This document shows positions 13,279-13,978 of a stretch of 64,000 nucleotides of DNA, one piece after another (within the stretch, counting starts at the first letter, position 1; every line of letters begins with the position of its first letter). Both the position numbers and the translations under genes were made by a program. Origin of the DNA: Escherichia phage teqskov; sequence record NC_054934.1. The stretch is one strand, 5' to 3'. The notes below the pieces were generated by a model. That model was not told where the DNA came from. It saw only the letters and a program-made list of their open reading frames with translations, and made no database searches.

Positions 13279-13351
13279 TGGGAATTAGCCAAGTTGGTAA
13301 GGCATAGCACTTTGACTGCTAGATGCAAAGGTTCGAGTCCTTTATTCCCAG
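13279..13351 (+). tRNA. tRNA-Gln (anticodon UUG)
   Basis: Cloverleaf folded by hand: acceptor tgggaat/attccca, anticodon loop ctTTGac, T-loop ttcgagt. Confidence 0.85.
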
Positions 13352-13352
13352 C

Positions 13353-13439
13353 GCGAGAATGGTCAAATTGGTAAAGGCACAGCACTTAAAATGCTGCGGA
13401 ATGATTTCCTTGTGGGTTCGAGTCCCACTTCTCGCACCA
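13353..13439 (+). tRNA. tRNA-Leu (anticodon UAA), long variable arm, CCA encoded
   Basis: Acceptor gcgagaa/ttctcgc, anticodon loop ctTAAaa, T-loop ttcgagt, ends ACCA. Confidence 0.85.
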
Positions 13440-13444
13440 AATTT

Positions 13445-13518
13445 GCGGATATCGTATAATGGTATTACCTCAGACTTCCAATCTGATGATGTGAGTTCGA
13501 TTCTCATTATCCGCTCCA
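13445..13518 (+). tRNA. tRNA-Gly (anticodon UCC), CCA encoded
   Basis: Acceptor gcggata/tatccgc, anticodon loop ctTCCaa, T-loop ttcgatt. Confidence 0.85.
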
Positions 13519-13528
13519 ATTTAATTTA

Positions 13529-13602
13529 CTCCGTGTAGCTCAGTTTGGTAGAGCGTCTGCTTTGGGAGCAGAATGTCGTAGGTTCAAATCCTGCCGCGGA
13601 GA
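13529..13602 (+). tRNA. tRNA-Pro (anticodon UGG)
   Basis: Acceptor ctccgtg/cgcggag with one G-U, anticodon loop ttTGGga, T-loop ttcaaat. Confidence 0.8.
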
Positions 13603-13604
13603 CT

Positions 13605-13694
13605 GGAGGCGTGGCAGAGTGGTTTAATGCACCGGTCTTGAAAACCGGCAGTCGCTCCGGCGACTCATAGGTTCAAATCCTATCGCCTCCGCCA
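13605..13694 (+). tRNA. tRNA-Ser (anticodon UGA), long variable arm, CCA encoded
   Basis: Acceptor ggaggcg/cgcctcc, anticodon loop ctTGAaa, T-loop ttcaaat. Confidence 0.85.
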
Positions 13695-13699
13695 GTTTT

Positions 13700-13775
13700 G
13701 CTGATTTAGCTCAGTAGGTAGAGCAGTTGACTGTTAATCAATTGGTCCATGGTTCGAATCCATGCATGTCCGCCA
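13700..13775 (+). tRNA. tRNA-like element with intact D, anticodon (loop cuGUUaa) and T arms but an acceptor stem that cannot pair; possible hybrid or pseudo-tRNA
   Basis: 5' gctgatt against 3' catgtcc gives only 3 of 7 pairs; first ~26 nt match the remembered T4 tRNA-Thr 5' half; ends GCCA. Confidence 0.5.
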
Positions 13776-13901
13776 AACTTGTGACAGTTGTCACATTAAT
13801 ATCTACTTGACGCGATTATAGGGGTTGAACTGATCACACTTCTCTTAATTTCGTGTGAAGACATCTTGATTGTTGGAGTAGGTATTGCTGTGAACTAATT
13901 A
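13776..13901 (+). other. Non-coding spacer with hairpins (gtgacagttgtcac; cacac...gtgtg); possible small stable RNA
   Basis: No ORF; T4 encodes small stable RNAs in its tRNA region; assignment speculative. Confidence 0.2.
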
Positions 13902-13978
13902 CGGGGTGTAACTCAATTGTATAGAGTAGCGGTCCTCTAAACCGCAGGTTAAAGGTTAGAATCCTTTCACCCTGACCA
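13902..13978 (+). tRNA. tRNA-Arg (anticodon UCU), CCA encoded
   Basis: Acceptor cggggtg/caccctg with one G-U, anticodon loop ccTCTaa, T-loop ttagaat, ends ACCA. Confidence 0.8.

Follow-up and report, generated by a model that had tools for sequence, protein, structure and literature searches.

The element at positions 13700-13775 (+ strand) of the analysed 64,000-nucleotide stretch of Escherichia phage teqskov (NC_054934.1; the whole stretch is referred to as the window) was determined to be composed of the 5' part of a tRNA-Thr gene and the 3' part of a tRNA-Asn gene. It is very probably a Thr-Asn hybrid tRNA pseudogene, left behind when a recent deletion between short homologous sequences shortened an ancestral array of ten tRNA genes. 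The element is chimeric, its two parts meet within a defined interval of the D-arm, tRNA genes carried by the closest relatives are missing from the array, and the flanks on both sides are nearly identical to those of one of these relatives. The relic was characterized by ARAGORN and Rfam searches, alignment, direct pairing and folding.

Composition and structure of the hybrid element

Positions 1-26 of the element were identical to the tRNA-Thr genes of two related phages, REP2 and BCH953P2. The T4 tRNA-Thr is identical there as well, which bears out the earlier note on this DNA, where the first ~26 nucleotides (nt) had been matched to T4 tRNA-Thr. Positions 18-76 (59 nt) were identical to the tRNA-Asn(GUU) of REP2 and BCH953P2. 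The Thr prefix and the Asn suffix overlap by 9 nt, GGTAGAGCA, which occupy equivalent D-arm positions in both genes and are in register (13717-13725). Since the prefix and the suffix overlap exactly there, the crossover is confined to GGTAGAGCA. The interval is bounded by two diagnostic bases, A at position 17, specific to Thr, and G at position 27, specific to Asn. By this prefix and suffix matching the element was divided into three segments on the + strand: the Thr-only segment at 13700-13716, with the acceptor 5' strand GCTGATT and with A17, which is absent from Asn (the segment is the same as in T4 tRNA-Thr); the crossover zone at 13717-13725, common to the Thr and Asn D-arms; and the Asn(GUU)-only segment at 13726-13775, comprising the anticodon arm, the variable loop, the T arm, the acceptor 3' strand CATGTCC and the terminal GCCA, all as in the Asn genes of REP2 and BCH953P2.

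The idea of the earlier note that the 5' part of a Thr gene had been fused through a shared D-arm to the 3' portion of another tRNA was therefore correct, with the Thr prefix, the Asn suffix and the 9-nt D-arm overlap as its elements. The tRNA-Ile gene, which the note had named for comparison, was rejected as the 3' donor: Ile2(CAU) of both T4 and REP2 mismatches the 3' part of the element, whereas tRNA-Asn, which belongs to the full gene block of at least 362 phage records, matches it perfectly.

The homology between the Thr and Asn D-arms extends beyond the crossover zone. The tract TAGCTCAGT[A]GGTAGAGCA has 18 matches and a 1-nt gap. When all 45 pairs of tRNA genes in the parental array are compared, it is equalled in local homology by a Pro/Asn tract and surpassed by none. 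One of the two strongest direct repeats of the array thus served for the deletion, as would be expected of a homology-guided event.

No call was made by ARAGORN at 13700-13775. The Rfam tRNA model RF00005 gave a local match at 13707-13764 (51.2 bits, E-value of 4.6e-08 window-wide), the seventh in the window, which covered model positions 8-63 of 71. The match spanned the D, anticodon and T arms, where none of the pairs was flagged as non-canonical, and the acceptor stem lay outside it. The anticodon loop is CTGTTAA (anticodon GTT, or GUU in the RNA), the discriminator base is G, and the CCA is encoded, giving the end GCCA. Sound D, anticodon (GUU) and T arms and the GCCA end had been described in the earlier note, and the local match agrees with this description. 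Direct pairing of the acceptor strands GCTGATT and CATGTCC gave pairs at 3 of 7 positions, the same number as had been obtained by hand. The CATGTCC strand pairs perfectly, two G-U pairs included, with the 5' strand of Asn itself, GGATGTG, which is deleted here.

The acceptor helix was absent from the minimum-free-energy fold of the element, the stability of which was no better than that of shuffled sequences (z -0.92), and the orphan 5' strand was paired into the D region in the predicted fold. Both parents folded with a 7-bp acceptor stem, the cloverleaf of the Thr parent having a z of -2.1. A search of the vicinity for an alternative acceptor partner gave no convincing strand, whether on the upstream side (for CATGTCC) or on the downstream side (for GCTGATT); the sole candidates were G-U-rich 6/7 matches or lay inside the tRNA body. 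Having neither a 7-pair acceptor stem nor end-to-end recognition by a tRNA finder, the element is not a canonical tRNA gene.

The deletion in relation to the closest relatives

Positions 13200-14050 were compared by megablast with 50,697 phage records. The 583 matching records were T4-like (Tequatrovirus), as judged by the organism name and taxonomy of those fetched. All the records which spanned the whole query matched it in two pieces, with ~250 extra bases between them. The closest relatives were Tequatrovirus BCH953P2 (OZ035785, 99.9% identity) and Escherichia phage REP2 (OQ174501). Ten tRNA genes were detected in both arrays by ARAGORN, and for REP2 also in the annotation of the record, in the order Gln-Leu-Gly-Pro-Ser-Thr(UGU)-Ile2/Met(CAU)-Tyr(GUA)-Asn(GUU)-126-nt spacer-Arg. 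Because the parental array had ten tRNAs, T4, against which the note had set its count, was the wrong reference for the expected number of genes.

In the three-way alignment of 311 nt, the window had one clean gap, from the D-arm of Thr to the D-arm of Asn, and all of its remaining bases were identical in the three sequences. Measured on the record spans, the deletion comprises 248 bp when REP2 is the reference and 262 bp when it is BCH953P2. Thr was left without its 3' two-thirds and Asn without its first 16-25 nt, and Ile2(CAU) and Tyr(GUA) disappeared entirely. The suggestion that recombination had taken place between adjacent tRNA genes is consequently right as to recombination and wrong as to adjacency, as Ile2(CAU) and Tyr(GUA) lay between the two partners and were lost too. 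Outside the deletion, 13185-13725 matched BCH953P2 at every position and 13717-14616 at all positions but one, so that 541 nt on the left and 899 nt on the right are identical. The near-identity of these flanks indicates that the event was recent.

The complete Thr-Ile2-Tyr-Asn block was found in one piece in at least 362 phage records, some of which are diverged (92-96% identity). When a 121-nt junction query was compared by BLAST with the same 50,697 records, all full-coverage matches were of the two-piece, parental type. Exact-match scans of IMG/VR, of metagenome contigs and of one-genome-per-species contigs found no copy of the junction, nor was the alternative product, which a crossover within the first 9-nt block would give, present in IMG/VR. 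As the block is widespread, the junction occurs in no other record scanned, the parents are perfect cloverleaves and the flanks are near-identical, the event was a deletion in the lineage of the window and not an insertion elsewhere.

Relics of deletions in other arrays

A second hybrid was detected in phages IME339 (NC_055741, locus positions 1064-1160) and CM8 (MK962750, locus positions ~722-812), which share an unannotated relic with a Tyr 5' part and a His 3' part. The crossover of this hybrid lies in the T-loop, within the 11-nt motif GGTTCGACTCC that doubles as the core motif of the homing endonuclease SegB. The Asn gene, the spacer and the 5' part of His were lost in these phages, the stems of the hybrid are broken, and ARAGORN makes no call there. 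Both IME339 and CM8 were grown on E. coli BL21, and a SegB-like coding sequence (CDS) is situated directly upstream of the Ser gene in CM8.

A survey of the arrays in IMG/VR yielded three loci, which are too few for frequencies. In the contig IMGVR_UViG_3300010279_000005 (L010), a tRNA-Asn is followed after 4 nt by a tRNA-Arg of the His-cluster type (2005-2175). The 114-nt spacer and the tRNA-His, which are present in the locus L009 and in 215Ecol030PP, are absent from L010, and the junction is at a shared CCAA(A/T)T. L010 represents a third type of deletion between short homologies in these arrays.

In vB_Eco_F25 (OP870144, locus positions 1205-1262), the tRNA-Thr has an internal deletion of 15 nt, which begins in the 3' half of the anticodon loop and extends across the variable region. 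It is matched by Rfam with 41 bits, and both an ARAGORN call and an annotation in the record are absent.

Possible course of the deletion

According to the proposed course, the ancestor was nearly identical to BCH953P2 and carried the ten-gene array Gln-Leu-Gly-Pro-Ser-Thr-Ile2(CAU)-Tyr-Asn-spacer-Arg. One in-register deletion, ~250 bp long, would have extended from the D-arm of Thr to the D-arm of Asn, the direct repeats TAGCTCAGT[A]GGTAGAGCA having recombined with the crossover within GGTAGAGCA. Such a short-homology recombination could have proceeded by unequal crossing-over, by single-strand annealing after a break between the repeats or by replication slippage; all three routes, with or without a particular trigger, are possible, and they leave the same sequence behind.

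A variant of this course, in which the break was made by a nuclease, was considered as well and is unlikely, though not negligible. A cut at the T-loop site of Thr, Ile2 or Tyr would have been followed by resection and by single-strand annealing at the D-arm repeats. A SegB-type homing endonuclease, provided by a co-infecting phage or encoded elsewhere in the genome, or another nuclease would be a plausible enzyme. In the T4 and T6 arrays, SegB is the resident GIY-YIG homing endonuclease, and it cuts SegB-less arrays at GGTTCRANTCC...CCAR sites (PMC2330249). The T-loop sites of Thr, Ile2 and Tyr all lie between the two D-arm repeats, and SegB cuts at the 3' end of nearly every T2L tRNA gene, Met(Ile2) and Tyr included (PMC2330249). 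Furthermore, SegB breaks drive the UvsX/UvsY-dependent rearrangement of the T6 tRNA array, the expansions of which collapse without selection (PMC13096335). The Tyr-His crossover of IME339 and CM8 falls exactly in the SegB core motif, the array of CM8 is adjoined by the SegB-like gene, and the junction of the IMG/VR contig L010 is at CCAA, the preferred cut position of SegB. The window itself has an open reading frame (ORF) with a MUG113/T5orf172 domain within its array.

However, a SegB homologue was not detected by tblastn in the 64-kb window (best E-value 0.55), and the junction is in the D-arm and not at a SegB site. The deletion also failed to remove the target, as a preferred site in the 3' part of Asn was kept. 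This candidate SegB-type recognition sequence, GGTTCGAATCC...CCAAA, is predicted at 13751-13777 (+) from its GGTTCRANTCC core and CCAR end. The full sequence, GGTTCGAATCCATGCATGTCCGCCAAA, corresponds to the 27-bp site pattern, and G6, A16, G18, A26 and A27, by which the preferred Asn site of SegB is marked (PMC2330249), are all present; its positions 12-14 and 17 are not those of the T2L-type Asn site. In addition, intact arrays are kept by REP2, in which a CDS is annotated at the position of the MUG113 ORF, and by BCH953P2, which is near-identical there. Finally, the annealing that the nuclease would have initiated and simple slippage are inseparable at the level of the sequence.

As a general proposal, the contraction of T-even arrays might take place through SegB-type breaks at T-loop and CCA sites repaired via shared D-arm, T-loop and CCAA motifs, the relics being the footprints of such repairs. 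We regard this generalization as speculative and rather improbable. The three junction types, in the D-arm (window), in the T-loop (IME339 and CM8) and at CCAA (L010), are compatible with SegB-driven contraction and are no proof of it. If true, such a mode would mirror the expansion by SegB that was reported in 2026, with phages continually trading their tRNA repertoire, and with it anti-defence capacity, against genome size.

Probable transcription and fate of the hybrid

A scan for sigma-70 promoters and intrinsic terminators predicted none within 13210-13970. A putative T4-type middle promoter was read by eye against the T4 middle-promoter consensus at 13183-13209 (+), with a MotA-box-like TTTGCTTTA at 13183-13191, a 12-nt spacer and a -10-like TATTAT at 13204-13209. 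It is situated 70 nt upstream of tRNA-Gln, in a region that shares ~94% identity with the T4 sequence preceding tRNA-Gln. The T4 cluster is immediately preceded by a middle promoter, from which one transcript of ~1.75 kb runs through all the tRNAs to species 1 RNA (PMC2330249). Given this precedent, the lack of predicted internal promoters and terminators, the rnaD and rnaC homologues in the window, and the position between Ser and the spacer, the hybrid would almost certainly be transcribed as a part of the polycistronic tRNA precursor.

With pairs at 3 of 7 acceptor positions, the hybrid RNA would be a poor substrate for RNase P, for the CCA-end steps and for aminoacylation, and would be degraded without having a function. 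The relic is thus most likely non-functional and dead.

Some points weigh against a dead relic of a short-homology deletion. The 9 nt of exact match at the crossover would make a short substrate for UvsX-type homologous recombination. The deletion is known from the deposited sequence, and it may represent a subpopulation or a laboratory stock and not the whole phage population. That the hybrid RNA is unstable is an expectation based on what is generally known of tRNA processing and quality control. The anticodon GUU and the discriminator G73 are identity elements of asparaginyl-tRNA synthetase (AsnRS); with GUU, the discriminator G and the encoded CCA kept, a residual recognition by AsnRS is possible.

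In contrast to a dead relic, the hybrid could be a functional RNA: a stable tRNA-like molecule similar to the species 1 and 2 RNAs of T4, a decoy for nucleases which attack the anticodon loop of tRNA-Asn, or a tRNA-Asn of weak activity, the acceptor end of which is open. In its favour, there are no faults in the D, anticodon and T arms, which gave the 51-bit match, and the GUU anticodon, the discriminator G and the CCA are retained. The element belongs to a transcribed array, near stable RNAs (homologues of T4 species 1 and 2), and phage tRNAs are known to counter tRNA-cleaving defences (PMC13096335). Nevertheless, a functional hybrid is very improbable. The junction is unique to this genome, with no sign of conservation or selection, and the flanks indicate a very recent event. 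The poorly paired acceptor, the fold no better than shuffles and the lack of a nearby strand which could complete the helix speak against a stable molecule, and the same event destroyed four working tRNA genes.

Artefact and direction of the event

A technical origin, i.e. a collapse or a chimera formed between the D-arm repeats in assembly or sequencing, would mean that the true array is the intact one of ten tRNAs. The occurrence of the junction in no other public sequence scanned is what such an artefact would produce, and the odd G-run insertion beside Tyr in BCH953P2 suggests that sequencing problems occur in this hydroxymethylcytosine (hmC)-modified region. Yet the two repeats match perfectly over only 9 nt and differ by a 1-nt indel. 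Since this is far shorter than the usual assembler k-mer or read length, a collapse of the repeat is not to be expected. The junction is clean and in register, both flanks are error-free in comparison with BCH953P2, and equivalent deletions were found in independent records, e.g. the same Tyr-His hybrid in IME339 and CM8. An artefact is accordingly very improbable.

The reverse direction, with an ancestral short form and a gain of the Thr 3'-Ile-Tyr-Asn 5' segment by insertion in the relatives, is favoured by the formal symmetry of indels alone and is effectively refuted, as the relatives could have arisen in this way only if one defective gene had been turned into two perfect cloverleaf genes by the insertion, and the full block occurs in at least 362 records and the junction in none of them, the window being the same as BCH953P2 outside the indel.

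The tRNA genes and other features of the locus

In the whole 64-kb window, 6 tRNA genes were found by ARAGORN, all within one cluster. The five intact genes upstream of the hybrid form a block at 13279-13694 (+): Gln(UUG) at 13279-13352, Leu(UAA) at 13353-13439, Gly(UCC) at 13445-13518, Pro(UGG) at 13529-13603 and Ser(UGA) at 13605-13694, all on the + strand. The sixth gene, tRNA-Arg(UCU), is at 13902-13978 (+). All the six were matched by Rfam in full length (model positions 1-71), those of the block with 59-68 bits. The same six tRNAs had been listed in the earlier note, the coordinates given there are correct, and its count of seven T-loop motifs in the cluster was reproduced. Six of the motifs fit GGTT[CA][GA]A, and the seventh, read directly, is that of Gly, GAGTTCGATTC. 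A minus-strand Rfam match to Plastid-psbl-rps4 (21.9 bits, the cutoff being 68) was dismissed as a T-arm look-alike.

The Pro gene of REP2 differs from that of the window and BCH953P2 at 12 positions (13556-13597), clustered in the anticodon and T arms, while the rest of the left flank is nearly identical, which suggests that the REP2 gene was swapped or is a mosaic. In BCH953P2, an extra 14 nt, GAATTAGGGGGGGG, were observed before tRNA-Tyr (locus positions ~2159-2172) compared with REP2; they may be a homopolymer sequencing artefact in this unannotated record.

The spacer between the Asn-derived end of the hybrid and tRNA-Arg (13776-13901, +, 126 nt) is identical in REP2 and BCH953P2, and a homologous spacer is located between Asn and His in 215Ecol030PP. 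At its start, there is a perfect inverted repeat, TGTGACA-GT-TGTCACA (13782-13797, +), which could be a processing or protein-binding site.

Directly 3' of tRNA-Arg, where segB-type genes are situated in other arrays, an ORF of 184 amino acids with a MUG113/T5orf172 domain was assigned by Pfam and PHROG at 14000-14554 (+), in the transcription unit of the tRNAs and stable RNAs. The Pfam matches were PF13455 (38 bits, cutoff 22.3) and PF10544 (27.9 bits, cutoff 20). The ORF was assigned to PHROG 5032, and weak matches to endonuclease and homing-endonuclease PHROGs were also obtained. A CDS is annotated at this position in REP2, and BCH953P2 is near-identical across the stretch 14000-14554. The homologues of the T4 stable RNAs rnaD (species 2) and rnaC (species 1) were found by blastn against T4 in full length at 14529-14646 (+, 99.2% identity) and 14653-14791 (+, 97.8% identity), respectively. 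The start of the rnaD homologue overlaps the last 26 nt of the ORF. No Rfam family matched the rnaD and rnaC homologues.

Expected consequences of the deletion

Compared with the relatives, four tRNAs were lost: Thr(UGU), the AUA-reading Ile, Tyr and Asn. In the 49 long ORFs of the window, the corresponding codons are used at the following frequencies per thousand: 9.9 for ATA, 17.0 for ACA, 44 for TAT and TAC together, and 58 for AAT and AAC together. These frequencies are roughly twice those of E. coli. The defence system Septu cleaves tRNA-Tyr, and a phage-encoded tRNA-Tyr allows T6 to escape it (PMC13096335). In comparison with BCH953P2, the phage is predicted to have a somewhat less efficient late translation and to be more exposed to defences which target tRNA-Tyr or tRNA-Asn.

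For annotation, the element at 13700-13775 should be designated a tRNA pseudogene (Thr/Asn hybrid), and the number of functional tRNAs is six, not seven or ten. Hybrid relics of this kind go unannotated in public records. The phage and BCH953P2 constitute a natural near-isogenic pair at this locus, by which the contribution of the lost tRNAs, e.g. to Septu resistance, could be gauged.

Comparison with known systems

The type of event is already known, and nothing conceptually new is added by the window, the particular junction of which is so far unique. By its title, the paper of McClain and Foss (Cell 1984;38:225-231, PMID 6380760) concerned hybrid tRNA genes in T4. Partly homologous tRNA genes within the cluster had reportedly undergone unequal recombination or deletion to give these hybrids. 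A literature search on unequal recombination in T4 tRNA genes found nothing. The T4 hybrids, reportedly laboratory mutants, belong to the same virus group and the same tRNA array as the hybrid of the window. In contrast, the Thr-Asn fusion occurs in a sequenced relative and derives from a ten-tRNA array, and it could not have arisen in T4, because T4 is without an Asn gene.

The endpoints of T4 deletions, for example in rII, fall in direct repeats of a few to ~20 bp. The repeat-bounded endpoints of the window are the same, although the T4 deletions represent a general class of mechanism which, unlike the present case, is not specific to tRNA genes.

The maps of the T4, T2L and RB1/RB3 arrays indicate that close relatives differ by whole tRNA genes and segB (PMC2330249). 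The array of T4 has the order Thr-Ile-segB-Arg, and the T2L-type arrays are without Thr and have Met-Tyr-Asn(-His)-Arg. Expansion and collapse of tRNA arrays by recombination have been described for T6 (PMC13096335). Whereas the differences in the published T-even maps concern whole genes, the breakpoints in the window are inside two genes and a chimeric relic was left.

The Tyr-His hybrid is present in two deposited genomes, IME339 and CM8, in contrast to the Thr-Asn junction, which was found in no other record scanned than that of the window. Both hybrids are of the same kind, consisting of the 5' part of an upstream gene and the 3' part of a downstream gene with the genes between them lost, and they differ in the crossover, which is in the T-loop in IME339 and CM8 and in the D-arm in the window. 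The Tyr-His hybrid, the loss of His in IMG/VR and the deletion in the window point the same way, namely that T-even arrays shrink by deletions between short motifs shared by their tRNA genes.

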